From IMG/VR virus record IMGVR_UViG_3300022848_000014, positions 1 through 64,000 of that record: a stretch of DNA of 64,000 nucleotides; one strand, given 5' to 3'. Both the position numbers and the translations under genes were made by a program. Origin of the DNA: a virus. The number at the start of each line of letters is the position of its first letter. Position 1 is the first letter of the stretch. Shown here in pieces: positions 39,197 to 64,000 of this stretch. The notes below the pieces were generated by a model. That model worked only from the letters and a program-made list of their open reading frames with translations. It was not told the DNA's origin and made no database searches.

Positions 39197-39199
39197 GCT
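39144..39199 (-). mobile_element. attC-like site E
   Basis: Minus strand AGCTAAC-ACTAAGCTTCGTGCCGTTC TCTTC GAATGGCATTAAGCGACT-GTTGAGC, imperfect palindrome. Confidence 0.7.
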
Positions 39200-39206
39200 G
39201 CAAGTG

Positions 39207-40040: not shown

Positions 40041-40073
40041 ATCAAAGTTTTGTGTTTAAAATCCGCACCAGTC

Positions 40074-40168
40074 AGCTAACATGGTATATAAAAAATAGCC
40101 TATTAAAGTTCGGTGTATAATATCAATGTTTGTGGTCAGGCTACTTTTCATATACCTGTCCGTTAGCA
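40074..40168 (-). mobile_element. attC-like site D
   Basis: TGCTAAC..GGTATATGAAAAGTAGCCT...AGGCTATTTTTTATATACC.T-GTTAGCT on the minus strand. Confidence 0.75.
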
Positions 40169-40178
40169 ACAATAAAAA

Positions 40179-40355
40179 TTATTCCTCCCACCAGTAAAGC
40201 ACCTTAAAGAAGCTCTTTATCATTTCAGGAACATCCCATTCATCACCTAACCAAGTGCTTTCCCCTTCACCATTGTTACAAGAAGGTGCATTGTTTTTTA
40301 TTCTGTATTTACCAACAGAAGTTGGTTGTCTTTCGTTTGTGCTTACCCAAGCCAT
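40179..40355 (-). CDS. 58-aa cassette protein (MAWVSTNERQP..., DUF551-like start)
   Basis: Single ORF filling the space between sites C and D. Confidence 0.6.
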   Translation of the reverse strand: MAWVSTNERQPTSVGKYRIKNNAPSCNNGEGESTWLGDEWDVPEMIKSFFKVLYWWEE

Positions 40356-40367
40356 AATTTTAAAAGT

Positions 40368-40461
40368 TGCTAACAAAAGCTATAAATAAAAGCCTTGTTA
40401 AGGTTTGTGTGTGAATTGAACTTTGTGTTGAAGGCTTCAATTCATAGCCTAGTCATTACCT
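40368..40461 (-). mobile_element. attC-like site C (AAT variant)
   Basis: AGGTAAT..GCTATGAATTGAAGCCTT...AAGGCTTTTATTTATAGC..GTTAGCA on the minus strand. Confidence 0.7.
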
Positions 40462-40469
40462 GCAAGTGC

Positions 40470-41609
40470 TTAGACTTGTGCTAAACTTGAAGATTCGTGC
40501 TTATCATCCCGTAATAATATTTTTTTTCTCCCCTCTTTTGATTCTGCTAATATTAGAGCTTTGAATATTTGAAATGCAACCTGGGGTACAATTGCATTTC
40601 CGTATGCTTTTATTGATTCTTGTCGCCATTTAGGAAAGGTAATTCCGTCCAGTTGGTTGGAAATCCCATCATTTCCGCTACAAATTGGGGATTGAGTTGG
40701 CCATCTACCATCATAGTAAGTCCAACTTGCTTTCCTTTCTCCAAACGATTCAGAACGCATTTGTCCTTTGGGTTTCCCCTGTTCCTGTTGTCGCTTGCAT
40801 TCGGTGTCGGCAACATTCCTTTTTGATTCCACTTCGCTACCGTTTCTTCCAAATTCCCTTTGTTCCTGTTTGCTAATTTCTCGCTGTTTAGATTGCATCC
40901 GTTTACTTGGTTCGCTCTCGGTGTCGGTATTAATCCCTGAGATATTTGATGTGATAATGTTGTTTGAACTTTCGTTCCGTCTTTCCTGTACCAAGAGGTT
41001 TCCTTCCAAATCCAACCTTTTTCTTTTGCTCTCTCTGGCGTTATGTTCGCCATTGGATTTGCGCTCGGTGTTGATAGCAATAAACCAGACCCTATCTCTT
41101 CTATGGGGAGCGTTGACGGCAGCAGCTGGAAGTACACACGGTTGTACTTTGTACCCTTCATTTTCCAAGTCAGCTTGCACCTCGTTGAAAACCAATCCGT
41201 CATTCCAACTAATGAGACCAGAAACATTTTCTGCCACAACATATTTGGGTTTAATCTCTCGAATTGCTCTAAGCATTTCTGGCCAGAGGTGTCGGTCATC
41301 TTCTTTACCAAGTCTTTTACCTGCTGAGCTGTAAGGTTGGCAGGGGAATCCTCCTGTGAGGATGTCAATTTTTCCTCTGTGAATAGAGAAGTCTGTTTTG
41401 GTAATGTCTTCATAAGATATTGCTTTAGGCCAGTAATGTTTTAGTATTCGTTGACCAAATTCGTTCCATTCGCAATGAAATACGTTTTCCCACCCCATCC
41501 ATTCAGCAGCTAAATCAAAGCCACCAATTCCAGAGAACAGAGAACCGTGTTTTAGGCTATCGCCTAATTTGCCATCGCTCAAAAAAATATTATTACTACG
41601 TTCAGTCAT
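40470..41609 (-). CDS. DNA C5-cytosine methyltransferase, large (alpha-like) chain
   Basis: LFSGIGGF, GGFPCQ, ENV, HRRDRVW, C-terminal YGNAIVPQ (motif X); motif IX absent. Confidence 0.92.
   Translation of the reverse strand: MTERSNNIFLSDGKLGDSLKHGSLFSGIGGFDLAAEWMGWENVFHCEWNEFGQRILKHYWPKAISYEDITKTDFSIHRGKIDILTGGFPCQPYSSAGKRLGKEDDRHLWPEMLRAIREIKPKYVVAENVSGLISWNDGLVFNEVQADLENEGYKVQPCVLPAAAVNAPHRRDRVWFIAINTERKSNGEHNARESKRKRLDLEGNLLVQERRNESSNNIITSNISGINTDTESEPSKRMQSKQREISKQEQREFGRNGSEVESKRNVADTECKRQQEQGKPKGQMRSESFGERKASWTYYDGRWPTQSPICSGNDGISNQLDGITFPKWRQESIKAYGNAIVPQVAFQIFKALILAESKEGRKKILLRDDKHESSSLAQV
40610..41413 (-). CDS. Nested out-of-frame C5-MTase small (beta-like) chain carrying motif IX
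   Basis: 267 aa alternative-frame ORF with three (L/I)(S/P)TP repeats and LNPQFVAEMMGFPTNWT. Confidence 0.7.
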   Translation of the reverse strand: MKTLPKQTSLFTEEKLTSSQEDSPANLTAQQVKDLVKKMTDTSGQKCLEQFERLNPNMLWQKMFLVSLVGMTDWFSTRCKLTWKMKGTKYNRVYFQLLPSTLPIEEIGSGLLLSTPSANPMANITPERAKEKGWIWKETSWYRKDGTKVQTTLSHQISQGLIPTPRANQVNGCNLNSEKLANRNKGNLEETVAKWNQKGMLPTPNASDNRNRGNPKDKCVLNRLEKGKQVGLTMMVDGQLNPQFVAEMMGFPTNWTELPFLNGDKNQ

Positions 41610-41644
41610 TTAATTAAAGTTTGTGTTTATTAATCGCACCAGTC

Positions 41645-41700
41645 AGGTAACACGCTATAAAAGCCATTGAAAAAACGGCTCTTATAGCTATTCGTTAGGC
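41645..41700 (-). mobile_element. attC-like site B
   Basis: GCCTAAC..GCTATAAGAGCCGTT TTTTC AATGGCTTTTATAGC.T-GTTACCT on the minus strand. Confidence 0.75.
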
Positions 41701-41716
41701 ACAATTAAAACAAACT

Positions 41717-42550
41717 TTATTGCATATTAATTTCGCTCTCCGTTTCGCTTCTTTTATCTAAGTCGTTTATCCCACACATACCATTACAATCAAACAATGG
41801 TTTAGGCTCTCTACCTTTCATCATACTAATATCTTTCATTTGTGGGTAGTCTTTATGTGGTTTTAGAAATACTAATCCACCGCCTTTACTTTGGTCTTTC
41901 AACATAGTTATTGGCTTACCTTTAACATTTGTTAGTTCATGCTCCATCGCTGCCATTTTATCAAATTTATCAGGAAAGTCTCTACTCATTTTCTGCCAAT
42001 ATCCAATTCCACCTTGTACGCATCCAGTCTTAAAACAATTGTTATTTAAGAACCCTAATTGATACATATTTGGAACTTCAATACTTGCATCTTGTACAAT
42101 CTTAATACAATCCTTTTTATTCAATCCATGCATCATTAAAGGAAATAAAGGTTTTGTTTGTGGATGGTTTAAAACCATCCCTTTTGCTCTCTTATATTCG
42201 TCAAGTTCAAACCCAAAAATTTGATGTTTCCATTCATTAGTCTTTTCCCACGTTTCACGTACTTGCCTTTTCATTTCAGAACTACATACAGCACCCTTAG
42301 CATTGTTCAGTGCTTTGTATCTTCGCCAAACTGCTTGAACGCTTTCGTGCTTTGTACTACTTATAGTCTCAATCTCTATGCCATACCAATCGGCACAGTC
42401 TTTCATAAATCGGTAAGTATCATCGTCTTCATTATGTGTATCAATAAAAATAATTCTTACATTTTCTTTACCATACAAATCAATTCCAATTTTACAAGCT
42501 ACCGCACTTGTAATTCCACCACTCCACCAGCCAATTATCTTATATTTCAT
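41717..42550 (-). CDS. PAPS-reductase-like PP-loop protein
   Basis: WWSGGITSAVAC PP-loop; C..E.KR..R, GF...E..R, Y.LGF.NNNC...GCV.GG.GYW. Confidence 0.75.
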   Translation of the reverse strand: MKYKIIGWWSGGITSAVACKIGIDLYGKENVRIIFIDTHNEDDDTYRFMKDCADWYGIEIETISSTKHESVQAVWRRYKALNNAKGAVCSSEMKRQVRETWEKTNEWKHQIFGFELDEYKRAKGMVLNHPQTKPLFPLMMHGLNKKDCIKIVQDASIEVPNMYQLGFLNNNCFKTGCVQGGIGYWQKMSRDFPDKFDKMAAMEHELTNVKGKPITMLKDQSKGGGLVFLKPHKDYPQMKDISMMKGREPKPLFDCNGMCGINDLDKRSETESEINMQ

Positions 42551-42951
42551 ATTGCAAATGATTTTAAATATTCCACACCATCTTCTAATGTGTCAAAAAC
42601 AATATCAGAAACCTGTGTTACAAAGGATAAGTAATTATCTTTTATTGTTTCGTGATTTGGTTCAAGTACAGTTATAACCGTTTTACCCAATCCTTTAGCA
42701 TAACCAGCCTCACAACATAAACCAATACAGCTCGTGTTTGTTTTTTCAATATAAACAAATAGTATATCACTTTGCTTTATAAAATGCAAATCCCATTTTC
42801 CGTACTCATTCACATTCATAATAACCCTTTCGTTATTCTTAAACTCTTTATCTTTTGGGTTAATCCATTCAATATTATCAGAACATTCTTTTACTTTATT
42901 AGCCCAATCGCTCTTAAAACCACCAGCTAAATATGTTTTTTGTTTTATCAT
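42547..42951 (-). CDS. Nucleoside 2-deoxyribosyltransferase-like protein
   Basis: YLAGG, NP, WDL..I..SD, G...E.GYA..LGK.V. Confidence 0.75.
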   Translation of the reverse strand: MIKQKTYLAGGFKSDWANKVKECSDNIEWINPKDKEFKNNERVIMNVNEYGKWDLHFIKQSDILFVYIEKTNTSCIGLCCEAGYAKGLGKTVITVLEPNHETIKDNYLSFVTQVSDIVFDTLEDGVEYLKSFAI

Positions 42952-42987
42952 TGTATATATTTTTCATATTTTATAATTAATAACTGT

Positions 42988-43118
42988 GCCTAACACGGTA
43001 TAAAAATAATAGCGGTTTTAGGTCTTTATTTAAGGTTAGTAATATTTATTTAATTCTGTTCTTAATCGTTTGGTTCGTGCGTTTCAATCCGCTACTATTC
43101 TTATACAACACGTTACCA
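42988..43118 (-). mobile_element. attC-like site A
   Basis: TGGTAAC..GTATAAGAATAGTAGCGG...CCGCTATTATTTTTATAC..GTTAGGC on the minus strand. Confidence 0.75.
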
Positions 43119-43688: not shown

Positions 43689-44096
43689 TTATTGTTGTTT
43701 AATTTTACGTGGAAGCCTCAGGTACCATCTATTTCCTAAGGGCCTCATACTTTTAAGTTCAAAGACAAGAGCATCAATGAACTCTCTATCATACTTGTCT
43801 TTTTCTAACTTAAGACAATTCCTACGATTGAAAATAATATTTAAGTTTCGATCAAAGTACTGCCGAATTTGTGCTGAGGTAAACTTTCTCTTGTTTTTAT
43901 GTGGAAGCCTCAGGTACCATTTATTCCCTAGCACCCTGAAGGTTTGAACTCCATCAAAAAGAATGTCATTGTACACCTGCTCATAGGTGTATATTTCTAT
44001 TTTCTGACAATTACCACGATTGAAAATAAGATTTAAGTTTCGGTCGAAGTACTGCCGAATTTGTGTTTGGGAAAACTTTCTAAAATAATTTCTCAT
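43689..44096 (-). CDS. Basic protein made of two ~64-aa repeats
   Basis: QIRQYFDRNLN.IFNR.NC and LGN.WYLRLP each occur twice; 192-bp DNA period. Confidence 0.65.
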   Translation of the reverse strand: MRNYFRKFSQTQIRQYFDRNLNLIFNRGNCQKIEIYTYEQVYNDILFDGVQTFRVLGNKWYLRLPHKNKRKFTSAQIRQYFDRNLNIIFNRRNCLKLEKDKYDREFIDALVFELKSMRPLGNRWYLRLPRKIKQQ

Positions 44097-47770: not shown

Positions 47771-48047
47771 TGCAATTCCTGTTGGGGATAGAGTACTTGT
47801 AATCCCTGATCAAGCCCAGCAAGAGATGTTTGGGCTTATGATTCCCTCTCAAGCTCAAAAGAAAGTCCAGACTGGTAGAGTAATAGCTGTTGGTAAAGGG
47901 AAGGGCGAATTGGAAATGCAGACAAAGGCTGGGGATACAATTCTCTACAGTGACTTTGCTGGAACTGAAATCAAAATCGATGATGTTGTTCATATCATCA
48001 TGCGTGAAACCGATGTTTATTGCATCCTTAAAAATGAAGAAGTATGA
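47754..48047 (+). CDS. groES: Co-chaperonin GroES
   Basis: PVGDRVLV, GLMIP..A.KK...G.VIAVG.G, KAGD.ILYS.FAGTEIK, IMRETDV. Confidence 0.93.
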   Translation: MSKKNSAIPVGDRVLVIPDQAQQEMFGLMIPSQAQKKVQTGRVIAVGKGKGELEMQTKAGDTILYSDFAGTEIKIDDVVHIIMRETDVYCILKNEEV

Positions 48048-49801
48048 GAAAAAAGTTAATTGAATTCGATAATGCCAAGGAAAAGATGGCTCTAGGGGCT
48101 AATAAACTGGCAAGGGCTGTTTCATGTACCCTGGGACCAAAAGGTAGGAACGTTGTGCTCTATCTTGAAGATGGCCGAATGCACACGACAAAAGATGGTG
48201 TGACTGTAGCACTCTTTACAAAGTTCTTTGATCAAATAGAAGATGCTGGTGCCACGTTCCTTCAGGATGCATCAAAGAAAACGGTTCACCAGTCAGGTGA
48301 TGGGACAACTACTTGTACACTCGTAGCCAATGCGCTCATCCAGCAAGGGGTGACATACCTCAAGGATAAGATGCACTCTGCTGTGGAGTACACAGATGGA
48401 ATTCAAAAAGCCTCTAGGAATCTAATCGAAGAGTTGGTGCAGGAGTCAATCGAAATCAATGGGGATTTAGATATGATTGAGAATGTTGCTAGGATAAGTG
48501 CCAACAACGATGCTGAACTAGGGAAAATCATCCGTGAAGCTATTGAGGCTGTGGGTTTAGATTCCATCATTCAGGCAGACGACAGTGGGGACAACACCAC
48601 TTCAGTTAAAGTAGTAGATGGAATGGAATTCCAAAATGGATTCAAGCACCCTTACTACATTAATGACCATAAGGGTCGGTGTGTGTTTGATGACAAGAGT
48701 GACAAGGTGAAAGTGATCATTATAGACAATGACCTTACGACACTGAAGCAAGTAATTATGATGATGAAGCATATTGGGGAGAACAACCTGAAGGCTGTCA
48801 TTGTATGCAATCAAATGATTGGTGAAGCAGATAGTGTAGCCCTTGTCAATGTCCAAAATAATGGGCTAAAGGTTTGTGTAGTCAATGCCCCAGGCATGGG
48901 GGACCGAAGACGGGCTTATCTCAGGGATTTAGGGATATTCACTGGTGCCACGGTAATCGGTGATGAAACGGGCACGGAGATCGAAAATTTCAAGCCAGAA
49001 TGGATGGGTACTTGTGAGAAGTTTGTGGCAGATGCTAAGACCTCCCGATTCATTATGGGGGGTAACGTTCCTGACGTTGTTCAGGGCGATATTGATTCTT
49101 TGAAATTAAAGATGGTTAAGCCTGGCCCAGAGAGTTCAATGGAAGCAAGGGCTAATTACACAAGGCAAAAGCAAGAAGTAAAGGATCTCTACGAAAAGAA
49201 GAAGTTGATTACAAATGAGATCGGAAGTATTGAGACTCAAATTGGTAATACAACAGATGCCTTTGCTATCAAGAAGCACAAAGAACGCATTCAGAGGCTC
49301 AAGGGTAAGGCTGCAATCATCTTAGTAGGGGCACAGACCACTCAAGAGCTTCGTCAAAAGAAAGATCGAGTAGATGATGCCATAAAAGCTACTCAAGCTT
49401 CAGTTGAGGAAGGAATCGTGCCTGGTGGTGGTGTCAGCTTCTATAATGCCATGAAAAGGGTAACGCTTAATGATCCTTATGCTGGTGATGAGACACCTGA
49501 GCAAATAGGTTACTACGCATTCCTAGATGTGATGTCTGAAGTTCTGATTAAGATTTGCGAAAATTCAGGGTATGACGTTGCCTCTACTATAGCAAAGATG
49601 GAAGCTCGGAAAGACATGCAATTTGGTCTTAACGCAAAGAGTGGTGAATTCTGCAACCTGATAGACGCAGGGATCATCAATCCTACTAAAGTTGATCGTG
49701 TAGCAATTGAAAACGCGACATCTTCAGCTTGCACAATGCTATTGTCGGAGTGTGTTATATACCCCGATCCTGAAGCATTTGAAGAGGTGCCCCAGCAATA
49801 A
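48044..49801 (+). CDS. groEL: Chaperonin GroEL
   Basis: TLGPKGRNV, TKDGVTVA, GDGTTT, APG.GDRR, KDRVDDA, EEGIVPGGG. Confidence 0.95.
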   Translation: MRKKLIEFDNAKEKMALGANKLARAVSCTLGPKGRNVVLYLEDGRMHTTKDGVTVALFTKFFDQIEDAGATFLQDASKKTVHQSGDGTTTCTLVANALIQQGVTYLKDKMHSAVEYTDGIQKASRNLIEELVQESIEINGDLDMIENVARISANNDAELGKIIREAIEAVGLDSIIQADDSGDNTTSVKVVDGMEFQNGFKHPYYINDHKGRCVFDDKSDKVKVIIIDNDLTTLKQVIMMMKHIGENNLKAVIVCNQMIGEADSVALVNVQNNGLKVCVVNAPGMGDRRRAYLRDLGIFTGATVIGDETGTEIENFKPEWMGTCEKFVADAKTSRFIMGGNVPDVVQGDIDSLKLKMVKPGPESSMEARANYTRQKQEVKDLYEKKKLITNEIGSIETQIGNTTDAFAIKKHKERIQRLKGKAAIILVGAQTTQELRQKKDRVDDAIKATQASVEEGIVPGGGVSFYNAMKRVTLNDPYAGDETPEQIGYYAFLDVMSEVLIKICENSGYDVASTIAKMEARKDMQFGLNAKSGEFCNLIDAGIINPTKVDRVAIENATSSACTMLLSECVIYPDPEAFEEVPQQ

Positions 49802-53015: not shown

Positions 53016-53240
53016 ATGAAAAACAATAAAATTATAAGCAGTTTTAAATATTGGGCAATCACTAGAAAATGGTTGTGGCAAAGAGTCGTTTTTGATAATG
53101 GTGTTGTTGGCAGAAACTATCACAGATATGACCATATCTTGTATTCTTATTGTCAAGGAATGGGTGATAATGGAGAGTATGGAGGTATTAATACCGTAAT
53201 AAAATTACAAGTGGAATCATCTATGCGTAATTGTGCCTAA
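53016..53240 (+). CDS. Hypothetical cassette-type protein; stop codon lies inside site F
   Basis: Ends TGT GCC TAA(C). Confidence 0.6.
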   Translation: MKNNKIISSFKYWAITRKWLWQRVVFDNGVVGRNYHRYDHILYSYCQGMGDNGEYGGINTVIKLQVESSMRNCA

Positions 53241-53297
53241 CGGTTTGTATATGAAATCGGCTGACGATAGGAAGCTGTTTTATATACCGTGTTAGCC
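53235..53297 (+). mobile_element. attC-like site F
   Basis: GCCTAAC-GGTTTGTATATGAAATCGGCT...AGCTGTTTTATATACCGT-GTTAGCC. Confidence 0.75.
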
Positions 53298-53335
53298 ATC
53301 TGGCTGTGGTAAATTAAGAACTAAAATTAAATAGA

Positions 53336-53980
53336 ATGAAAATATTAATAGCTTGTGAGGAGAGCCAAGAAGTTTGTAAGGCTTTCCGAGAAATAGGATT
53401 TGAGGCTTATAGTTGCGATATGCAAGAATGTAGTGGTGGTAAACCTGAATGGCATATTGTAGGTGATGCAGTTGTAGAAGCGTATAGTGGTAAATATGAC
53501 CTTATGATAGCGCACCCACCTTGCACTTATATTAGTAGAGCTGGTGCAAGATGGATGTACCCAACAGCAGGAAATTTAAGCCAAGAAAGATTTAATAAAG
53601 CAATGGAAGCGAAGGATTTGTTTATGAAATTATTGAACGCTCCTATACCTTATATTGCTGTTGAGAACCCAACATTGTTAAAAGTAGTTGGATTGCCTAA
53701 ACAAAGCCAAGCGGTGCAACCTTATGAATACGGACACCCTTATAGTAAAAGAACTCTGCTGTGGATTAAAAATTTACCACTATTAAGCCCAACCAAAATA
53801 GTAAGCGAATATAAGCCGTACTTACCAAGTAATACAGGGGGCAAAAAACGAGGGCAGAAATATCAATTTAAGAACATAAGCCAAAAGGAAAGCAGTAAAA
53901 CTTTTAGCGGAATTGCAAAAGCTATGGCTGAACAATGGGGAAACTTCATTAAAAGCGATAATGTAGCAGCTTGTGGCTAA
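53336..53980 (+). CDS. Phage DNA cytosine methyltransferase-like protein
   Basis: ILIACEES, SCD, IAHPPCT, ENP, K.TLLW...LP, SKTF.GIA.AMAEQWG; stop inside site G. Confidence 0.8.
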   Translation: MKILIACEESQEVCKAFREIGFEAYSCDMQECSGGKPEWHIVGDAVVEAYSGKYDLMIAHPPCTYISRAGARWMYPTAGNLSQERFNKAMEAKDLFMKLLNAPIPYIAVENPTLLKVVGLPKQSQAVQPYEYGHPYSKRTLLWIKNLPLLSPTKIVSEYKPYLPSNTGGKKRGQKYQFKNISQKESSKTFSGIAKAMAEQWGNFIKSDNVAACG

Positions 53981-54042
53981 CGTGTTGTATATGATTAAGC
54001 GATAGCGACCCTTTTTAGGGTTAATTATATACGGTGTTACCT
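53975..54042 (+). mobile_element. attC-like site G
   Basis: GGCTAAC-GTGTTGTATATGATTAA...TTAATTATATACGGT-GTTACCT. Confidence 0.75.
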
Positions 54043-54068
54043 GCAGTACGGATTATTAAAAACGAAAT

Positions 54069-54773
54069 ATGAAAAGAAACAAAATATATTTAGGGGATTG
54101 TTTAGAGTTGATGCCTAAACACGTAGAAGATAAAAGCGTTGATATGATTTTTTGCGATTTACCTTATGGAACAACACAAAACAAATGGGATAGCGTTATA
54201 CCTTTTGAGCCACTTTGGGAACAATATAAGAGAGTTATAAAAGATAATGGAGCTATTGTGTTATTTGGCTCACAACCTTTTACAAGTGCTTTAATTATGA
54301 GTGAACCTAAAATGTTTAAATACTCTTGGTATTGGTTAAAAAATAGAGCTACTGGAGTTTTAAACTCTAAAAAACAACCGTTAAGAAATATTGAAGAAAT
54401 TTGTGTTTTTAATATAAAGAAATATAACCCACAAGGATTGATTGAGGTGAACCAACCAAGTAGAAACAGCAAGAAAGATTACGATAACTATGGGAAAGGA
54501 ACTAGTAAACAATACACTCAAAAATACACAAACTACCCAAAGCAATTGATTGAGTTTAATAGCGTGCAAAGAACAACGCACCCAACAGAAAAGCCATTAG
54601 ATTTAATTGAATATATGATTAAGACTTACACAAATGAAGGTGATTTGATACTTGATAATACTTGTGGAAGTGGAACAACTGGAAGAGGAGCGAAGAACTT
54701 AAACAGAGATTATATTATGATGGAGCAAGAAGAGAAGTATTATGACATTGCTTGTAAAAGACTACTAACTTAG
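54069..54773 (+). CDS. DNA N6-adenine/N4-cytosine methyltransferase (beta class), paralogue of 39207-40040
   Basis: GDCLELM, CDLPYG, HPTEKP, ILDNTCGSGTT. Confidence 0.92.
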   Translation: MKRNKIYLGDCLELMPKHVEDKSVDMIFCDLPYGTTQNKWDSVIPFEPLWEQYKRVIKDNGAIVLFGSQPFTSALIMSEPKMFKYSWYWLKNRATGVLNSKKQPLRNIEEICVFNIKKYNPQGLIEVNQPSRNSKKDYDNYGKGTSKQYTQKYTNYPKQLIEFNSVQRTTHPTEKPLDLIEYMIKTYTNEGDLILDNTCGSGTTGRGAKNLNRDYIMMEQEEKYYDIACKRLLT

Positions 54774-54779
54774 TATTGC

Positions 54780-54835
54780 AGGTAACACTAAGCTTCGTGC
54801 CGTTCTCTTCGAATGGCATTAAGCGACTGTTTAGC
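54780..54835 (+). mobile_element. attC-like site H (same body as site E)
   Basis: AGGTAAC-ACTAAGCTTCGTGCCGTTC...GAATGGCATTAAGCGACT-GTTTAGC. Confidence 0.7.
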
Positions 54836-54867
54836 ACCGTCTTTCGGAGTACTTACGGAGAAATATG
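54783..54867 (+). repeat. 85-bp inverted repeat, partner of 39112-39196
   Basis: 83/85 identity to the reverse complement. Confidence 0.95.
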
Positions 54868-54879
54868 GGTTTTAAAAAA

Positions 54880-54996
54880 ATAGCTCACATCTCCTGAGCC
54901 TGGGCCGACACCTCCCGCAGTTGTATGTTGTCGCCAGTTTCATGCTTCAGGTACCCTCCACATGACGCAGAATTCAGGCCCGGACATGTGAGCTAT
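54880..54996. other. GC-rich multi-stem structure between convergent operons
   Basis: ATAGCTCACAT/ATGTGAGCTAT 11-bp closing stem plus inner stems; T-run follows on the minus strand. Confidence 0.5.
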
Positions 54997-55005
54997 AGTG
55001 CAAAT

Positions 55006-55641
55006 CTAGCTTTTTATCCAATCTGAGCAAACATGTATTTCACTCTTATGTCTGAGTCGCATAAATACCCCATGGCCTTCTCGTGATCCTGCGCTATTGG
55101 TGTTCCCCTCTACTGTAAGGACGTACCCATCCCCGAAGTCCATTACAATTACCCCCACATGAGCCACACGCTTTAGTCTAGTGAAATAGAGTCCAAAAGT
55201 CCAACCTTGTTGGAATGTAATATGATCGCCATCGATACCCCTTTGCCAGACAATTTTATCTTTTGGAAACCAACAGGGACTCCATGCGGGACAGGACGGA
55301 CCTTCTAATCCTATACTCAGGAGTCCATAGTTTGCGAAGCAAGCACAATATGGGTTTCCAGGCTCAACTCCGCACCCATTGAAGAAAAGATCGATTAGCG
55401 GACCTCTATTGGAGGCGTTATCCTCTTTTGCCCCCAGATATGATTTCAGGGTATCCACATACCATTTTTCTGTGGGCCTGGGTACTGAGATGTCTAGGTA
55501 TACTGTGTCTCGGATGAATATACTATCCTTTTTCAAGGGCTCTTGGTATGTATCTGTTATAGTATGGCCGCTATCATTGCAGCCGCACAAAGAACAAAGA
55601 ATGCATAGATAGATAAGAAAAATAGGGGTCTTCTGAAGCAT
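55006..55641 (-). CDS. CHAP-domain endolysin with N-terminal hydrophobic/lipoprotein-like signal
   Basis: PYCACF catalytic Cys, AHVGVI, TVEGNT. Confidence 0.85.
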   Translation of the reverse strand: MLQKTPIFLIYLCILCSLCGCNDSGHTITDTYQEPLKKDSIFIRDTVYLDISVPRPTEKWYVDTLKSYLGAKEDNASNRGPLIDLFFNGCGVEPGNPYCACFANYGLLSIGLEGPSCPAWSPCWFPKDKIVWQRGIDGDHITFQQGWTFGLYFTRLKRVAHVGVIVMDFGDGYVLTVEGNTNSAGSREGHGVFMRLRHKSEIHVCSDWIKS

Positions 55642-56000
55642 TGGAATTCTGGTTTTTCGGTTTTTCGTATTGTCTTAATATCATTCACAAACTCACTATC
55701 TAATCCTACCCCTTCACCATCTGGATCGGTGAAGTAGTCAGTGACTAATGGGAAGAACCTCTTAAGCATGTACCAAGCGCCCATTAAGACGATTGAGAAC
55801 ACACCGATACCCGCCAGAGACGACATTAGGTACCTCATTGATATTGCTGGCATTTCATCCGGGCCAAAAATGTACCCAAGGCCGTACAACCCCCCATATA
55901 CAATTCCAACCCACACTAGGATATTAATAACGTCTTTCCCCATTACCAGGGACCAAGCTTTCTTGATCAATTTAATTGATTTACTTTTTTGCATTTTCAT
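55557..56000 (-). CDS. Holin-like membrane protein
   Basis: Three hydrophobic segments; overlaps the lysin start. Confidence 0.55.
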   Translation of the reverse strand: MKMQKSKSIKLIKKAWSLVMGKDVINILVWVGIVYGGLYGLGYIFGPDEMPAISMRYLMSSLAGIGVFSIVLMGAWYMLKRFFPLVTDYFTDPDGEGVGLDSEFVNDIKTIRKTEKPEFQCFRRPLFFLSIYAFFVLCAAAMIAAIL

Positions 56001-59000
56001 CTTTCATTTTTTGAATTGATAAATCTCGTTTGGCTTTACGCTCTTCGTCTCTTATTTTTTTTGCTGCAGCTCTTTCTAGTGCAACTTTAACTCCAGGCCC
56101 CTTTTCAAGAGCTAGTTCCCATGTTTTCTGTGTAATGTCTACCTCATACTTTTTAGCCATCATATCCTCTAAAGCTTTTTGGGCTGTTCGATTAATTCCT
56201 GGCTTATCAGGATTAACCACTTCCTTAAGATATGAGTAGTGAACTAATTTTTGTTCTTTCTCAGTGATCCTTTCTTGTGGGATTTTCTCGATGTAGTTGT
56301 AGAGGGTCATTGTATATCGATAAGTCTCGTCGTCTAGGTCTTCAACAAACCTACGGACTAAAGGCATTTGGTTCACACTTCCCTCTTTATCAAAAGTAGC
56401 TATGCGAACTGCTTCTTGGGCTATACCCCCAAAAACCTCATTCATTATGTAGTCAAAAGTCTCTGGACTAATACTCACACCCATTTTGTCATAGAGTTGT
56501 TGGGCACCCTCTATGTAGGCTTCATTTGTACTTTTATGGTAAATCTCATGATCAGCCTTTCCAATAGTAAATTTCGGATAAATTGGACTCATCTTATAAT
56601 CTTTATTCATGGAGACCTCAGCACTTTGGGAAGCAAGTACTGGCAAAAAGGCACTTACCCAGTTAGCTTGGTTCCCACTCACAGGGTCAACCACCATTTG
56701 TACCGAATGCAATTGATTAAAGAAAGCTCTGGCTGGTGTGATCCTGCCAGATTGAAGGTCATAAGCAGCTTCACCCATTGACATAAATAGTCTTAGGAAA
56801 GAATAGGATTTCGGAATCTTGAAGGGCTTTGTTGGTTCAACTGGATTATAGATGTAAGTGTTCTGAGTCCAGTCCATCGGTGATTCGGTCATCATTTTTA
56901 GCTCATCCTCTTCATCCATCATGCTGTAGAGTAGCATTTTGTTTAGGTAGGCAAATGAGGCTGCTGCTGCCAGAGCTTTTCTACCAGACTTTGACTTGAG
57001 TAATTGCCCAGTCTTGGCCACACCCTGTATTCCTGCATTAAGGAAAAGGTACATGCTATTGAGAATAGTCATTTGAGACCCTTTTTTCTCAAAGTTTAGG
57101 GATATGTTTTTAGCGGCTCCCGCAGCCTGTTGTGGGGATAACCCTGCATCCCTGAGTGATGCATATACGGCTAGTCTGTTGGACATCTCAAAAACCTCAT
57201 TGATTCCTAAGGCTGTGTCCATCATGGCGTGAAGCGTCTCTTTGGCCATGTTTGTCCCTTTGTTTGCTTTAGACTTCTCACCAAGTTTTTTTAAGCTGTC
57301 AACCTGATCTTGTATCTGGCCATAGTTAGCCCATGACATGTACATCCCTTCAGCCCTTGCCTCACTCAGATATTGCATCATGTCACCCCCTTGGTCTGTG
57401 GCACCAAAGTAGTTTTTAGCAATTGTGGGTCCAGCAATACGAAGGTTTGCTAGATATGCACGTCGAATTCCCTTTAAGTCATATCGATCTTTTTCCACTC
57501 CTAAGTTTGCAAGGACATCCTGTGTATCACGAGCAAAGTTGGGAACACCAAAGAATATGTTAAGGGATGTTATGAGAGACCGTTGGAAATTAGTCATTGC
57601 CCCAAAACCTTTGATAATTTTGCCCTCCCACTTTCCTGTCTTTCGATTACTTGGGATAAGCGCATTATAGAGTCCTTCATGCCTAACCTCAAGATAAACG
57701 ATTTTACCCCCGGGCATACGAACCTTTACTGAGTTCGTTTTCACATTGTCAGGAACAAGGTCATTGTAAGAGATTATGTCTCCCGTATCTGGATCGATGT
57801 CAGGTATTCCTCTTGCGGTATGCACTTTCCATACTGAAGGATCGGCATTTTGACGAGCAAGTTCCACGAGCGCTCTATTGGCATTATTCTTCTCTACTTT
57901 CTCAATGGTTTTGGCCAGGTTTACTACCGCTTGATTTAATGGGTCATAGACTTGCTCTGAAGTATATGAGCCCCTTCCTTCAGCGGCCAGGATGTCAGGA
58001 GAAGTGCTACCACCTTTTTTCTTTGACTTTGAGTTAAAGAATGCAGGGTCAATAACAACGGGCATGTAGTTTGACCATTCAATATCTGATCCTGTTTTAT
58101 CCCCATTTAGTAGGGCTTGGTATTGCTTTTCGTCGATGAAATCGTTTTCATAGAGTATATCAAGATTCTTTTCCAAAACTTCCTCCCTGAATTCTTGGGC
58201 AAACTCATCTAGGTCTTTACGCTTTCCATCATAGCTATCTAATATGGCCTGTGCGTCTTTATCGCTCATTCTGGCTCCTTCCTCTACAATTCGATATAAT
58301 TCCACCTCATTGTTCTCGATAGCCTCAATTTGGGCAGCGTAGAACTGTTGTCCTCTTGTGGTTTCAGCATTTTCCATCTTAGCAGTTAGTTGAGCAACTT
58401 TTTCTTCCTGCTTCTTGATTGACATATCCCTGAGTCTTGCATTACGCTCAGGAACGTGAAGGGCGTACATGAATTGGGAAAGGTCTGTGAGTGTTAATCC
58501 CTTCTTTTTCATTCTTCCATTAAGGGAAGCTTTGTTCTGCTTTCTCTTTTCAAATACGGTGCTTCTGCCTGATATTTGGAAAGTGGTACCAGGGTCCGCG
58601 CCATAAATATAGGTCTTGAGTGCATCGATTTGTTCTGCAGTCTTTGATCTAACAAGCTCTCGTTTCGTGTAAGCATTAAGTGCGTCTGGTAAGTTTTTAC
58701 CCTTAAGCTTCTCGATAGACTGTTGAATTTTCTTAAGCCATATATCCCCATCTTGGAAAGCTTGCCTGAAGCTGGTAAACGTTTCAAAGCCTTCTGTTTT
58801 AGATAGGGGTATTGTCATGCCAGATTCATTCAGAAAATCAATTTCCCTTTGAACCCTTCCCATTAGGACATCGGCCAATTTCTCATCCATGCCTAGTTTA
58901 TCTACGACAAACCTCGTGATTGCTGCAGGGTCAGCGCCTCCTTGCATGGCCATTACGATTGAAGCTCGAATCTTCATGAAGTCCCTTGACATGTTGACTG

Positions 59001-62000
59001 TCATAAACTCCTTGTAAAGGTTCTCATTACGAAGCTTACCATCAAACATTGCTCTCAAGTGAGGGGAAAGCGCCTGATTCATGGTAAGCTCTTCAGCCAC
59101 TTTTTGGGTAAATCCCTCTAGTGTCAAGTTCTCAATTTCCTTGGCATTCAATTTACCAGACCACATACCAGAGGCTATGAGGGGCTTAGTAAATTGATTG
59201 AATGCTGTGCTTAAGAACTTGCGAAATTTCTTTCTGAAGTTGTCGGGCTGCTTATCAACCTCTAAAGCTTTATCGGCTATGGCATCAGTCAACGCATCTA
59301 AGTATGGGTTCCTAGACTTCCTTTTTTTGGCTTCTGCCAAATACTTTGTGCCTTCCATCATTTCCTTCACTTGATGAAGTAACTCAGGTCGGTTTTGCAT
59401 TGCTGGGAGTATCCATGCTTTTGCAAAAGTCTTGAAAGTTTCCTTTGGGGTGATTGTGGCAGGATTGAAGTAGATGTTCCCATCCATGCTCACAATTACT
59501 TGTTGCCCCGCATATTCATCTCCGAGTGCTTCAACTTGCTCTTTGAATTCTGAGAAGTCAAATGAAACTTTTAGTCCAGGGAATGCTTTACCCAGTGCAG
59601 TTGCAATCTTGGACGCATATCTGGTATTGGCCTCAGTTGACTCTTGCGTGTCTGGGAGTGTTACCGATTGCATATCGATACCTTCGAAAGCCTGTATAAC
59701 TTGATCCCCCAATAGATCCCCAAAAGTCATCACGGCCATTGCCTCTGCACCGTTGTATCCTTCAGCTTCTAAAGCCGCAATGATTTCCTCATTAGTAAAC
59801 CCTTGTGATTGCAGCAATTCTATAATGGCCTTAATCTCTGCGTGTTCATTAAATCCTACTTGGAAGAGGGGTTTGCTCTCAGCCTCGACTTTATCAATTT
59901 CAACATTACGATCATCAAATACGACATAATTTGCGTCGGTGTATTCCTTATTCCGTGGTTTTGGTATACCCATGGAGAGTGTTCCAACAGGATAGCGGAT
60001 GCCATCGATTCCTTTATGGGTCAACCTCATTGATGCTTGTTGTGGACTCATGTATTTAGTGAGCGTAAAATACAAGAAAGCTCCACTAAAGAGATCCGCA
60101 TCAGTTAAGAGCTCGACTAATTTATCAGTGTCATTATCAAGATCGTATTGCTCGTTAAAATGCTCCATGAGCACCTCATGTAAATCTGGTTCAGCAGCGT
60201 ATGTTTTCCCATCATTTGTGTCAAAATAAATTTCGTAACCTAGTGCCTCATAATCACCTTGCTCTGAATTGCTTACATCAACAGCTACACTGTTTGGGTC
60301 TGGTACTTCTAATATTCTACGAAGTTGATCTTCTGGCAGTGCGTTTTTCCATTCTAGGTACTCGTATTCACTTGGTTCTTTCCCTTTATGAATGGTAGTA
60401 TGATAAACTTGGCCACCACCAATTGTCCATGGCTTAACCTCTCCGCTTTTTATTAGTGGAACAATTTTGGCAAAGGCAGCAGCTTTTTTATGTGTGGAGC
60501 TTTCTTTATTTGGATCATTCTTAGCCCCTTCAGCCCACTTCTTCTCAAAGTATTCTGCCCTCTTAATGTAATCGGCCTTGAGTCTAGGGGATGCATTCAT
60601 GAGGTTTGATTCAAACACCTGATCTAAAGCCTCTCTCTCGTTATAATCAAAATCTAAAGGATCTCCGTCTTTTGATTTGATTTCCCAATTTTTAGTGTCT
60701 TGAATTTTTCGTGAGAGTGTTGTAGCATAATCCTGGGCTATTTCTTTTTTACTTGTGAAATAGAGGCCATAGCCAAAAGCTTGAGCACCCTCACCAGTCC
60801 CAATCTTATCTGAGTTGAACTTATCAAATAAAAATGGTGTTCCGTGATATGCTCTGACTTCTTGGCTGGTCCCTTGATTTCCAAAAAGGATTATTTGTTC
60901 TTCTCTTGATATTGGTGATCCATCCCCATAATTTTCAGTCGCAGATGGTGGGGTTTCCTTTCGTTGTCGAGGACTCATTGCAGCCCTGTTCTGTACGTTT
61001 CTAGCCTCAGTCTCTCCCGCTAGTGATTGGTATAGCTTGTGAGCCACATCACTAGGGACTCTTTTAGAAATTATTGCTGTTTTCTCTGAGGTTAATTCTT
61101 CGGATTTGAGTGTTTCAATTTCAGCTAGTAAAAAATCACGTCTACCATCAAGTGTTTCTAAAGCTTCTTGTAACACTAAACTTACGGGCTTACCTAAGTT
61201 CGCATCTTCGCTCTGAGAACTGAAATACATTAATTCAGTTGATGCATCATAGGAGCCTAATTTCTCAGTCCCAAAGTTACCTTGTATAAGAGCATTAAGA
61301 TTGTCTTTAGCTACCCTTTCCTCTCTTTGAAGTTTCTGAATTTCATCCGTTAAATATCCATTTTCATCAGGTCTTTCTTTTTTATTCAGGTCATACAGTT
61401 CTTCTGTCTCTTTCTTTTTTTGCCTAAAAAGAAGTGTCAGATCAGAAAGTTCATTTCTAAACGCTTCATCAGTCTGAAATTTATTAAGAACATCCTGAGT
61501 AACCTTTTTGCTATCAGATACATCTAGCAGGTCTTTTCTGGTTGCAGTGATTGCAGACGTAGAAAGTTCATTTTGCTTGCTTGCAGGTAGAGATGCTATG
61601 ACTGATTGTGGATTGCCTCCCATAGCAAAACCTTCAATCATTTGAATAGCGTGTTGCAGTTCGTGTATGAAGGTCGATCCCTTGTCTTGAGCGTATGGAG
61701 TTACTTGAAGCACTTTTGTTTCAGAGTTGTAAGACCCCTGAAGCCCCCCGAAATCCATGAAGCCACCTTTTTTTGATATTTTAATATCAAGAAGAGCTGG
61801 GTAAAGCTTGAATATTTCTTCGTATGGACTAATGACTTCGGTTATTGAAACTGTTTCAGTACCAAAAAGTTTCTGTGTAGCGAGAGCTTCAAACGCTTCA
61901 GTATTGAACATTGGTGGTTGTACTTCATACTTCCACTTTCCGTCAGTACCTCTTGCCCATCCTGTTAATCCACGAATGTATTCTGCACCATCTTTAATTC

Positions 62001-64000
62001 CTGGGTTTAGGTTGTTCTCTAATAATTGCGCCCGGCCTAACTTCTCCTTGACTTCATTATTCAGATTAGCATTTGAACCCACAAACTGGAATAAGGCTTT
62101 CCCATTTGGAGATAGACTATTTGGGTCTATTGGACCACCTTCTTCAGGTGTTAGTTTCACACCTAGCTCTTGCCCTCCCAGTAGATCGAATATAGCTCCA
62201 TCTAGGAATTCATCGAGGGTCATCTTGTCAATGGATTCTGTCTTTTGCATGAAGAAGGTTTCACCCAAATATGCTTTCATCTTCTCGATCCAGGCAGTGA
62301 ACTTATCTACCATGGCCTTTGAGCCTAGTGCCTTACTTAAGTTCTTGGCACCCCTCATCCCGATCGCTTGTACTAAAGCCTCATCTCGTTTCTCGTATTC
62401 AGTTAGGTGTGCATAGGCAGGATTGTTCTTGATCTCTTGGAATATGGCAGTTTCCTTCATCAACTGATTGGCCTCATTGTAAAGGTCATAGTTGGTGGCC
62501 TTCATGTGCTCAATGTAGATGTGGGCAAACTCATGTATGGCAGTATCCCTAGTTGCTGCTTGTGGGTTTATGTAGACTTTTCCGTTCCAATAAAACCCTT
62601 TGACTTTGTTGGTGTCCACGGGTATTCCCATCTCCGCAGACACTTTGGCTGCTGCTTCATTAAACGCTTCTTGATCATAAACCACTGGAACCTTAATTGC
62701 CTCAAGTAATTGCTTGATGGAGTTCCCTATGAATTCGGAAACACCTTTGCGCCTGGTCTTAATTACATCGGTAGCAGCCTTAGTTCGTACTTGGAAAGGA
62801 GTGTCTGGAACTGGTTCATTTGCCTTTGCTTCAGCTTTTTTAGCATCGTCCTTTTTGATTTGGGCCTGGGCACTTAGTTTGTTGAATTTTTTCCCAGTGA
62901 GTTCCCCCATTAATTCATCAATGGCAACTTGCCCAGGTGTTCGGCTAATTCCATTAGGATTGGCAATCATAAAGTCCACGATGTCATTACCGTCTACCTG
63001 AACAGCTTCGGTACCCGTGTCCCCTTCTCCTTCTGAGATATTGTCAGCTAGTTTTGCAATATCTGAAACTATTTTTTCCCCTTTCTTGGCAAACCATGTT
63101 TTCGCAAGGTTGAAAGTGATGTTTGTCGCATTGCTGTTTCTGATAAAGTCTTCTCTCGATATAGAGTTCTTGCCTAAGTTCTCAGATATGAGTCTATCCA
63201 TTTGGCTCAGACTTGATTGCTGAAGAGTCTGATCCATGTATGCCTCAGAAAGACTTGTTTTAATCTCGTCTAAAATCGTATCATATTGATCGCGGATTTT
63301 GTCAGACATTTCCTGTAAGTGGGCTTCTGTGTTGCCAGGGTCTTTTATAATCTTCTGCTCTGTTTCGTACTGAATATCTTGCATTATTTGACTTGGAACA
63401 ATCTCTTGGCTCCCGAATATCTCATCCTTGATACGTTGTACAACATCAAATATCTTTTTGACTGCTTCAGTAGACTTGGGCGGTGCTGGCTGGCGTTTGG
63501 CATTTTTACCCCTCTTAGTCTTTACCACTTTAGCTTTAGGGGCTTTAGTGGATGAGAGTCCTTCCGATAAAGCTTCAGTAGATTTTTCTAGGTTTCCTCC
63601 CTTGACTGCTTTTGTGACTTTTTCTGCAATTGGGTTTTTGTCAGTCTTACCTTCAGTTTGAACAGGCTTGTCGGGCTTTGGATCACCATCAGTTTTAGTG
63701 TCAGCTTTGTTCTCGACTTTTCCATCTGTTTTCTTTTTTGCCTCTAGTAAGGGAGAAATTAGTTTGTCATACTTCTGGTAAATCGCATCAAACTTCTTCT
63801 TGTCAGAATCCGAAAGTTTAGATCGATCTACTTTACCGTCTACCCTTGCTTCATCTATGTTTGGAATGGCTTCGGATAGTTCGGTTTGCTCTTCTGCTCG
63901 AAGTGTTTCTACCTTTTTTGTTACTTCTTCTTGCTCCCGTACTTCGGTGTCGGTTTCGGCTTTATTGTCTTTTTTACTTGGTAGGTCTTTTTTACTGGCT
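55981..64000 (-). CDS. Giant polyvalent (ejected/internal virion) protein: zincin metallopeptidases, LPD23-like, ADP-ribosyltransferase-like and C-terminal LPD38-like domains; 5' end beyond the window
   Basis: Frame stays open from 63528 to the window edge; HEFAH, TGW..G.DGKWKYE, HELQH...LAGE.EARNV, YHG...F....IGTGEG.QAFG.GLYF, NF.KKG.......LFLNA.IQG motifs. Confidence 0.8.
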   Translation of the reverse strand, partial: ASKKDLPSKKDNKAETDTEVREQEEVTKKVETLRAEEQTELSEAIPNIDEARVDGKVDRSKLSDSDKKKFDAIYQKYDKLISPLLEAKKKTDGKVENKADTKTDGDPKPDKPVQTEGKTDKNPIAEKVTKAVKGGNLEKSTEALSEGLSSTKAPKAKVVKTKRGKNAKRQPAPPKSTEAVKKIFDVVQRIKDEIFGSQEIVPSQIMQDIQYETEQKIIKDPGNTEAHLQEMSDKIRDQYDTILDEIKTSLSEAYMDQTLQQSSLSQMDRLISENLGKNSISREDFIRNSNATNITFNLAKTWFAKKGEKIVSDIAKLADNISEGEGDTGTEAVQVDGNDIVDFMIANPNGISRTPGQVAIDELMGELTGKKFNKLSAQAQIKKDDAKKAEAKANEPVPDTPFQVRTKAATDVIKTRRKGVSEFIGNSIKQLLEAIKVPVVYDQEAFNEAAAKVSAEMGIPVDTNKVKGFYWNGKVYINPQAATRDTAIHEFAHIYIEHMKATNYDLYNEANQLMKETAIFQEIKNNPAYAHLTEYEKRDEALVQAIGMRGAKNLSKALGSKAMVDKFTAWIEKMKAYLGETFFMQKTESIDKMTLDEFLDGAIFDLLGGQELGVKLTPEEGGPIDPNSLSPNGKALFQFVGSNANLNNEVKEKLGRAQLLENNLNPGIKDGAEYIRGLTGWARGTDGKWKYEVQPPMFNTEAFEALATQKLFGTETVSITEVISPYEEIFKLYPALLDIKISKKGGFMDFGGLQGSYNSETKVLQVTPYAQDKGSTFIHELQHAIQMIEGFAMGGNPQSVIASLPASKQNELSTSAITATRKDLLDVSDSKKVTQDVLNKFQTDEAFRNELSDLTLLFRQKKKETEELYDLNKKERPDENGYLTDEIQKLQREERVAKDNLNALIQGNFGTEKLGSYDASTELMYFSSQSEDANLGKPVSLVLQEALETLDGRRDFLLAEIETLKSEELTSEKTAIISKRVPSDVAHKLYQSLAGETEARNVQNRAAMSPRQRKETPPSATENYGDGSPISREEQIILFGNQGTSQEVRAYHGTPFLFDKFNSDKIGTGEGAQAFGYGLYFTSKKEIAQDYATTLSRKIQDTKNWEIKSKDGDPLDFDYNEREALDQVFESNLMNASPRLKADYIKRAEYFEKKWAEGAKNDPNKESSTHKKAAAFAKIVPLIKSGEVKPWTIGGGQVYHTTIHKGKEPSEYEYLEWKNALPEDQLRRILEVPDPNSVAVDVSNSEQGDYEALGYEIYFDTNDGKTYAAEPDLHEVLMEHFNEQYDLDNDTDKLVELLTDADLFSGAFLYFTLTKYMSPQQASMRLTHKGIDGIRYPVGTLSMGIPKPRNKEYTDANYVVFDDRNVEIDKVEAESKPLFQVGFNEHAEIKAIIELLQSQGFTNEEIIAALEAEGYNGAEAMAVMTFGDLLGDQVIQAFEGIDMQSVTLPDTQESTEANTRYASKIATALGKAFPGLKVSFDFSEFKEQVEALGDEYAGQQVIVSMDGNIYFNPATITPKETFKTFAKAWILPAMQNRPELLHQVKEMMEGTKYLAEAKKRKSRNPYLDALTDAIADKALEVDKQPDNFRKKFRKFLSTAFNQFTKPLIASGMWSGKLNAKEIENLTLEGFTQKVAEELTMNQALSPHLRAMFDGKLRNENLYKEFMTVNMSRDFMKIRASIVMAMQGGADPAAITRFVVDKLGMDEKLADVLMGRVQREIDFLNESGMTIPLSKTEGFETFTSFRQAFQDGDIWLKKIQQSIEKLKGKNLPDALNAYTKRELVRSKTAEQIDALKTYIYGADPGTTFQISGRSTVFEKRKQNKASLNGRMKKKGLTLTDLSQFMYALHVPERNARLRDMSIKKQEEKVAQLTAKMENAETTRGQQFYAAQIEAIENNEVELYRIVEEGARMSDKDAQAILDSYDGKRKDLDEFAQEFREEVLEKNLDILYENDFIDEKQYQALLNGDKTGSDIEWSNYMPVVIDPAFFNSKSKKKGGSTSPDILAAEGRGSYTSEQVYDPLNQAVVNLAKTIEKVEKNNANRALVELARQNADPSVWKVHTARGIPDIDPDTGDIISYNDLVPDNVKTNSVKVRMPGGKIVYLEVRHEGLYNALIPSNRKTGKWEGKIIKGFGAMTNFQRSLITSLNIFFGVPNFARDTQDVLANLGVEKDRYDLKGIRRAYLANLRIAGPTIAKNYFGATDQGGDMMQYLSEARAEGMYMSWANYGQIQDQVDSLKKLGEKSKANKGTNMAKETLHAMMDTALGINEVFEMSNRLAVYASLRDAGLSPQQAAGAAKNISLNFEKKGSQMTILNSMYLFLNAGIQGVAKTGQLLKSKSGRKALAAAASFAYLNKMLLYSMMDEEDELKMMTESPMDWTQNTYIYNPVEPTKPFKIPKSYSFLRLFMSMGEAAYDLQSGRITPARAFFNQLHSVQMVVDPVSGNQANWVSAFLPVLASQSAEVSMNKDYKMSPIYPKFTIGKADHEIYHKSTNEAYIEGAQQLYDKMGVSISPETFDYIMNEVFGGIAQEAVRIATFDKEGSVNQMPLVRRFVEDLDDETYRYTMTLYNYIEKIPQERITEKEQKLVHYSYLKEVVNPDKPGINRTAQKALEDMMAKKYEVDITQKTWELALEKGPGVKVALERAAAKKIRDEERKAKRDLSIQKMKDENAKK

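Follow-up and report, generated by a model that had tools for sequence, protein, structure and literature searches.

The window analysed here is a 64-kb stretch of a 73,733-bp IMG/VR virus record with direct terminal repeats (IMGVR_UViG_3300022848_000014), which represents a phage genome that recurs in salt-lake metagenomes. Its + strand carries an operon that includes a GroEL-like gene (48044–49801; phrog_5725, 2e-113) and ends in a short array of genes and hairpin-forming sites, here named array 2, while array 1 (39144–43118) lies on the - strand, the opposite orientation having been recognised already in an earlier interpretation from the sequence alone (the sequence-only reading), which regarded the hairpins as attC-like sites of mobile gene cassettes. 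The three sites of array 2, F, G and H, are imperfect palindromes with TAAC...GTT cores, which were recovered at the positions given in that reading both by direct reading and with a separate hairpin scanner. With the outer boxes named R'' and R' as in attC sites, site F (53235–53297) is bounded by GCCTAAC (R'', 53235–53241) and GTTAGCC (R', 53291–53297), site G (53975–54042) by GGCTAAC (53975–53981) and GTTACCT (54036–54042), and site H (54780–54835) by AGGTAAC (54780–54786) and GTTTAGC (54829–54835), all on the + strand. Sites F and G scored 53.9 and 46.2 bits, respectively, with covariance model R1, which was built from 59 sites, mainly phage and pattern-selected, with all eight sites of the window in the training alignment. 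The inner arms GTATATGA...TTATATAC are common to F, G and site D of array 1, as the sequence-only reading had stated, and the body of site H is of the same type as that of site E in array 1.

Both the open reading frame (ORF) upstream of F (53016–53240, + strand, 74 aa) and the gene between F and G (53336–53980, + strand) were correctly described as ending within a TAAC box, the TAA stop of the former being the TAA of the F box and the latter stopping in the box of G. The 74-aa ORF had no family hit in profile searches, and since there is no site upstream of it, the expected partner box GTTAGGC not being found upstream of F and hence of this ORF, it is probably the last gene of the backbone and not a cassette. 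The gene between F and G encodes a 214-aa putative DNA (cytosine) methyltransferase (MTase214), which matched phrog_757 'DNA methyltransferase' (2.4e-49) and Atlas clusters of the 'DNA cytosine methyltransferase family' (0.98); as it had no match in Pfam, NCBIfam or PDB, we use the methyltransferase label more softly here than for the 234-aa product of the gene between G and H (54069–54773, + strand), an N6/N4 (beta-class, CcrM-like) DNA methyltransferase (MTase234) with matches to Pfam N6_N4_Mtase (PF01555, 8e-31) and to NCBIfam. The MTase234 gene ends with a TAG stop codon 7 nt ahead of site H. The sequence following this (54783–54867, + strand, 85 nt) consists of the H body, its R' box and a 32-nt leader up to an ATG, and represents the E unit in truncated form, being near-identical to 39112–39196 of array 1 and inverted relative to it; E and H are alike in the body and the 32 nt downstream, and have nothing in common upstream. 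Array 2 is thus composed of two complete units (F with MTase214 and G with MTase234) and a truncated third (H with 32 nt), so that the earlier description as a second cassette array was retained for these units and given up for the 53016–53240 ORF.

The outer boxes follow a strict rule, in that the R' of each site and the R'' of the site after it are exact reverse complements at 6/6 junctions in the window. These are GTTAGCC/GGCTAAC and GTTACCT/AGGTAAC in array 2, and GTTAGGC/GCCTAAC, (G)TTACCT/AGGTAA(T), GTTAGCA/TGCTAAC and GTTAGCT/AGCTAAC in array 1, with the match often reaching 8–10 nt (TTG-Y-NNNTAAC versus GTTANNN-R-CAA); within a single site of the window, the two boxes mismatch. In 1.1 Mb of loci with such sites, 64 of 134 consecutive site pairs agreed at 4/4 variable positions versus 5.5 for shuffled partners, and only 12 of 271 single sites from the same loci had matching boxes of their own. 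Such complementarity would be expected if the site folded and paired with itself in a circular intermediate, and is not predicted for terminators, repeat elements or transposon ends. The boxes expected to close the first unit and the last unit of each array were not found; besides the GTTAGGC upstream of F this concerns GCTAAAC downstream of H and the equivalents in array 1.

A single unit of array 2 was found in an unrelated phage. The complete 64.6-kb phage G063 (locus L071) has, in comparison with 60 kb of the window, only 53230–53987 in common, at 99.6–100% identity, and this block contains the F box and hairpin, the gene for the 214-aa methyltransferase and the G box, giving site F an identical copy there. 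The identity ends directly after GGCTAACG, a different hairpin comes next, and the block is located in another methyltransferase-cassette array, in which the complementarity rule is also obeyed. More diverged units were detected as well, such as the B hairpin with its C5-methyltransferase in L014 (85.6% identity) and the G hairpin with MTase234 in L012 and L029 (75%), the MTase234 similarity with L012 and Cellulophaga phage phi13:2 being cassette-bounded at 73–75% nucleotide identity. The body of the G hairpin recurs in L012, L029, L086 and L027, and the E/H hairpin used as a probe matched four other phage contigs, which had only the hairpin and not the backbone in common with our phage. The MTase214 gene is present in L045 at 92% identity with a different hairpin ahead of it. 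A search of IMG/VR with the GroEL-like protein as query did not find close relatives of the phage.

Alternative junctions were also found in the source lake. A contig from metagenome run X10 joined position 53977 to 54783, with hairpin G and MTase234 exactly absent, and only the four letters TAAC were common to both sides of this joint, an overlap much too short to be an artefact of assembly with 31-mers. Foreign upstream sequence joined exactly at 53978 and at 54783/54784 in both runs X5 and X8, a different hairpin followed 54788 in one contig, and another contig began at 53238, the T in the TAAC of site F. The foreign joins at box positions therefore indicate that the content of the array is not fixed and that its breakpoints lie on the TAAC core. 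Together with the G063 block and the duplicated E/H sequence, the metagenome junctions place the crossover in TAAC, and hence define the unit as a hairpin with the gene downstream of it. Among hairpin bodies at least 90% identical at different loci, five pairs shared the downstream flank only and none the upstream flank only, while the test of whether a body travels with its gene, made per unit, had only four informative pairs with a mixed outcome. The ends of BLAST high-scoring segment pairs relative to the boxes (23 left ends, after setting aside two outside sites, and 9 right ends) form a thin dataset which is blurred by the generic conservation of the sites.

With a minimum of 13 stem pairs, seven hairpins were found in the window versus 0.3 in shuffled sequences. 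The sites of the window are 56–131 nt long. A site of this family is made up of an outer box (with TTG-Y-NNN-TAAC as its left and GTTA-NNN-R-CAA as its right half), short unequal spacers (4–6 nt versus 1–4 nt), an inner stem of the GTATATGA/TTATATAC type and a variable centre. The attC architecture R''(..AAC)-L''...L'-R'(GTT..) with a variable centre is present, and the spacer asymmetry, with the 5' spacer being the longer and a conserved G either in a G.T pair or bulged, has no clean mapping onto the T and G of classical sites. In the 59-site alignment, 94.4% of cells were paired versus 86.5% in shuffles (0/500 reaching this level), three pairs of the inner stem covary heavily, and G.T pairs are conserved at two positions (58/59 and 46/59 sites), the former largely being set by the search pattern and the latter not; these G.T pairs only exist on the gene-sense strand. 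Folding of the sense strand was better than that of its complement by 0.2–3.2 kcal/mol for 4/8 sites, and slightly worse for the other 4/8. Model R1 scored the eight sites of both arrays at 20.6–53.9 bits, all in the gene-sense orientation, and a search of the whole 73.7-kb genome gave no further site below E = 0.05; since all eight sites had trained the model, it is only this absence of further sites that is informative in the covariance-model check proposed earlier. Two additional candidates, at 4925–4991 and 21987–22088, were rejected as they lacked the family arms and had weak scores. Neither promoter-like features nor T-tracts or other features of intrinsic terminators were found at F, G and H.

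A strict pattern derived from F and G (TAAC, 4–6 nt, GTATATGA, 15–45 nt, TATATAC, 3 nt, GTTA) matched 83 IMG/VR stretches and 40 stretches of species-representative genomes, the latter versus approximately two expected by chance in our own rough estimate. Of these genome matches, 36/40 belonged to the Bacteroidota (Flavobacteriaceae, Saprospiraceae, Chitinophagaceae, Cyclobacteriaceae and Bacteroidales), and the hairpin scanner detected 271 sites in the loci of the family versus 38 in shuffles. Among phages in GenBank, Cellulophaga phage phi13:2 and Polaribacter phage P12002L carry sites of the same family and obey the complementarity rule, and the approximately 132-nt body type of site A in array 1 is also found in the bacterial loci L147 and L149.

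Most of the 36 site-bearing genomes encode a tyrosine recombinase of 374–415 aa, which scored 222–233 bits with NF040815 (cut-off 220), the Xer-like 'site-specific tyrosine recombinase/integron integrase' model, versus 198–206 with TIGR02249 and 190–196 with XerC/XerD. It aligns with the IntI model in two pieces (2–180 and 240–315), lacks the IntI-specific region at approximately 180–240, and has approximately 100 extra residues at the N-terminus. In seven genomes an R1 site was located at most 10 kb downstream of the recombinase gene, always in the same relative orientation, with a chance expectation of well under one genome by our own estimate, and 12 bacterial loci from marine and soil Bacteroidota have the Xer-like recombinase beside arrays of the same family. 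These include L147, where a gene-site-gene-site order is repeated four times (R1 site at 45.4 bits), L153 from Pontimicrobium with at least 12 sites of approximately 133 nt each, L152 from Polaribacter filamentus with at least eight sites, and L157 from a member of the Saprospiraceae with at least nine sites of approximately 67 nt each; the complementarity rule held for 3/3 junctions in L147 and 7/7 in L152. At 6/6 loci, the core predicted from the far box of the first cassette was present 30–101 nt past the stop codon of the recombinase gene (L147:3453, L151:5341, L150:3988, L145:3921, L157:2121 and L148:4176), and because half a site precedes this GTT core, we regard it as an attI-like site. 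The cargo of the bacterial arrays included SMODS, Fic and DUF6602 proteins, AraC-type regulators and a beta-lactamase-fold protein. A block of five genes (7 kb) forms the first 'cassette' of L148. When centred on the site, the crossover position is the same in phage and bacteria and the gene direction differs, as the cargo is in the sense orientation relative to the site in 50/51 viral cases versus antisense in 24/24 decided cases from recombinase-adjacent bacterial arrays.

We propose, with a probability of roughly three in four, that F, G and H are single-strand-folding recombination sites of an integron-like cassette system that is restricted to Bacteroidota and their phages, and which in the phage depends on an Xer-like host enzyme acting in trans. 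The system is integron-like but is not a classical integron, with IntI being absent and the associated bacterial recombinase being Xer-like, and it is best filed as a phage-borne branch of a Bacteroidota Xer-type integron-like system. The earlier cassette and attC interpretation thus agrees with the complementarity rule, the cassette-delimited identity and the breaks in TAAC, and has to be modified with respect to the classical integron. The mobile unit would be a hairpin with the following gene, starting at the C of TAA|C and ending with the NNNTAA of the next box, so that an upstream stop codon may sit in the core and would always be restored. It would leave as a circle, in which the far-end box would pair with the GTT box of the same unit, and be reinserted at the TAAC core of a further site. 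Because arrays with the same sites adjoin such a recombinase in Bacteroidota chromosomes, the enzyme would most likely be the Xer-like tyrosine recombinase of the host, acting on replicating phage DNA, while the orphan DNA methyltransferases may be exchangeable protections against host restriction enzymes. For the more specific proposal that virulent Bacteroidota phages maintain their own pool of hairpin-first cassettes with inverted cargo, mostly DNA methyltransferases, moved in trans by the array-associated Xer-like recombinase of the host on single-stranded DNA that folds at the sites, we consider the odds to be even.

Several observations weigh against this interpretation. Genes for a tyrosine recombinase, a serine recombinase or a Y1 transposase are lacking from the phage (PF00589 and NF040815 both absent), and 29/30 further phage records carrying such sites likewise had no tyrosine recombinase, so that action in trans is an assumption. 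The opposite orientation of the cargo means that the cassettes of phages and bacteria cannot be taken simply as a single pool. The joined contig of run X10 is 30 letters deep on one side of the joint, and since its depth was 30.7 versus 2.5–5.5 for the backbone, the joined form is probably derived from another, commoner genome and is not a variant of this phage. Furthermore, the linkage of hairpin and gene is not absolute, with L045 and L071 sharing a gene together with the body downstream of it, and some breakpoints are inside L' or in the 5' leader, and for these reasons homologous recombination at the conserved boxes may add to the shuffling. In the same run, the summed depth of the two methyltransferase units was 30–700 versus 2.5–5.5 for the flanking backbone (53208–54863), and the cassettes or their close homologues are therefore present on much commoner genomes in the same lake; gaps in read-mapping cover and differences in depth between bins were not counted as evidence.

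The array may alternatively represent a remnant of a classical integron, a cluster of attC sites lacking integron-integrases (CALIN), with canonical attC sites and cassettes moved by the IntI of a host, as proposed by Qi et al. (2023), who found CALINs in virulent phages, among them P12002L with two sites and two methyltransferases (PMC9892861). The attC-like anatomy of the sites, with AAC/GTT cores, two boxes, a variable centre and a length of 56–131 nt, fits this, the complementarity rule being a classical cassette signature, and two sites of the related P12002L array were called using HattCI and Infernal, with IntI1 recombining the terminal one (PMC9892861). The other P12002L site, attC1, which is a typical site of the family found in our phage, was called by HattCI only and was the sole one of six sites that was not recombined by IntI1 (PMC9892861); this failure argues against IntI, and says nothing in favour of an Xer-like enzyme. 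In our searches TIGR02249 exceeded its cut-off in 0/36 site-bearing genomes and in 1/401 Bacteroidia sampled, this single true IntI locus (G346) having no sites of the phage family nearby; a near absence of classical integrons from Bacteroidetes has been reported with IntegronFinder 2.0. The recombinase adjacent to the bacterial arrays also lacks model positions of approximately 180–240, and in the phage the hairpin is located ahead of the gene with junctions in R'' instead of at the G|TT of R', making a classical remnant an unlikely explanation.

We likewise regard it as improbable that the array results from ordinary homologous recombination between conserved stem-loops with a primarily regulatory role, without any site-specific enzyme, in the manner of the promoter early stem-loop (PeSL) cassettes. 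The breakpoints in L' or the leader would be explained in this way, as would identical bodies lying between genes that are unrelated (of 152 body-matched pairs, 122 have neither flank in common) and the absence of a recombinase from the phages, and the sense-only G.T pairs would suit an RNA hairpin. Homologous recombination does not, however, predict outer boxes which are complementary within each unit and vary between units, nor a pile-up of breakpoints on a 4-nt core, nor the bacterial recombinase with its attI-like platform and 6/6 predicted cores, and the regulatory role sits poorly with the lack of promoter-like or terminator-like features at F, G and H. Finally, the view that the hairpins act in RNA only, as terminators, processing sites or stabilisers between fixed genes, is very improbable despite their location just past stop codons and their better folding on the sense strand, as none of the sites is followed by a T-tract, a single unit is 99.6–100% identical in an unrelated phage and the source lake contains alternative junctions; the refuting case of the sequence-only reading, terminators with fixed content, was contradicted on both counts. 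A role in RNA may exist in addition to recombination.

The proposed Xer-dependent system resembles integrons and CALINs in having folded AAC/GTT palindromes that part single-gene units, in the complementarity of the unit ends and in the lack of an integrase in the phage arrays, and it resembles the phage CALINs of Qi et al. in its orphan DNA methyltransferase cargo, with P12002L having the same site family and obeying the rule. It differs from classical integrons by the absence of IntI from the phage and, as far as searched, from the host class, and by the crossover in the TAAC of R'' with the hairpin heading the gene, whereas classical cassettes consist of an ORF followed by attC with crossover at G|TT, an ORF-then-site order that does hold in the bacterial arrays of the family. 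Unlike classical attC sites, the phage sites have unequal spacers and G.T pairs instead of clear extrahelical bases, and a typical member was not recombined by IntI1 in the assay of Qi et al. The layout of the bacterial loci, with a recombinase and an array beside sites of the phage family, is similar to that of the recombinase-associated acquired interbacterial defence (rAID-1) clusters of gut Bacteroidales, where a XerD-like recombinase lies at the 5' end, the genes are co-directional and the repeats between them are described as 'reminiscent of integrons' (Ross et al. 2019, 10.1101/471110); our comparison is with this published description, and rAID-1 has been described from chromosomes and with immunity genes but not from phages, while the phage arrays lack the recombinase and have cargo facing the opposite way. 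Tyrosine recombinases without the IntI domain near attC sites were dismissed by Cury et al. (2016), and our literature search found no paper that links phage arrays to an Xer-type platform or notes the inverted cargo.

Integrons are the textbook device for gene capture, and are regarded as nearly absent from Bacteroidota and uncommon in phages. The loci described here point to integron logic, operating with another family of recombinases, throughout a major phylum, and tapped by phages without an enzyme of their own, which apparently swap the methyltransferases that defeat restriction; this would be a counterpart of the integron that is shared by phage and host, independent of IntI and used for exchanging anti-restriction genes. 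If the link to the enzyme is true, it would account for the near-100% sharing of single genes among unrelated virulent phages in one lake, would join the separately published phage CALINs and rAID-1, and would provide both a second, independent model for site-specific recombination on single strands and a simple sequence rule by which mobile accessory genes could be located in phage metagenomes. Other stem-loops and Xer-dependent elements of phages are also relevant for comparison. The PeSL cassettes of T4-type phages, reportedly described by Arbiol et al. in 2010, are said to contain accessory genes flanked by conserved stem-loops, with shuffling of modules and circular forms, and their exchange is said to be ascribed to homologous recombination between the repeats; they differ from the phage arrays in that neither an AAC/GTT core nor complementary boxes specific to each unit are known from them, nor a dedicated recombinase platform in the host. 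CTX-phi and other integrative mobile elements exploiting Xer (IMEX) provide a precedent, in that the Xer recombinase acts on a single-stranded phage hairpin that mimics a two-arm core site. In these elements the whole phage is integrated at the chromosomal dif site, and they are not known to move cassettes or to form arrays.

The sites of array 1 are A (42988–43118), B (41645–41700), C (40368–40461), D (40074–40168) and E (39144–39199), all on the - strand, and its cargo consists of a nucleoside 2-deoxyribosyltransferase-like protein with a 3'-phosphoadenosine 5'-phosphosulfate (PAPS)-reductase-fold protein, a C5 methyltransferase, a small ORF and an N6/N4 methyltransferase. The C5-methyltransferase unit following B and the N6-methyltransferase unit following D have a 5' leader of approximately 80 nt and the first 15 or so codons in common (41650–41570 and 40075–39990, - strand), with unrelated enzyme sequences downstream, and this shared leader may be an expression signal or a second recombination point. 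A leader of the GTRCGGATT..TAAAAAC type is found after site G too, and after its counterpart in phi13:2. In the latter phage (L002), approximately ten small ORFs between 2300 and 6800 end with TAAC followed by 5–8 nt and a GTATG-type arm, for which the return arm is not clear, and one full site is present ahead of a methylase; the tyrosine recombinase gp038, encoded 300 nt past this array, was rejected as a candidate enzyme since it matched XerD only weakly (29.5 bits) and resembles an ordinary phage integrase. Just upstream of array 1, a 135-aa ORF (43689–44096, - strand) without any family match in our searches contains two direct repeats of approximately 190 nt, each half reading ...QIRQYFDRNLN.IFNR.NC.... 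Downstream of array 2, a giant ORF (over 2,670 aa) occupies 55981–63999 on the - strand and extends beyond the window, and a long inverted repeat (54878–54995, ATAGCTCACAT...ATGTGAGCTAT) separates the array from a convergent endolysin-like gene (55006–55641), with a terminator-like site on the - strand (54900–54882) located within this inverted-repeat region.

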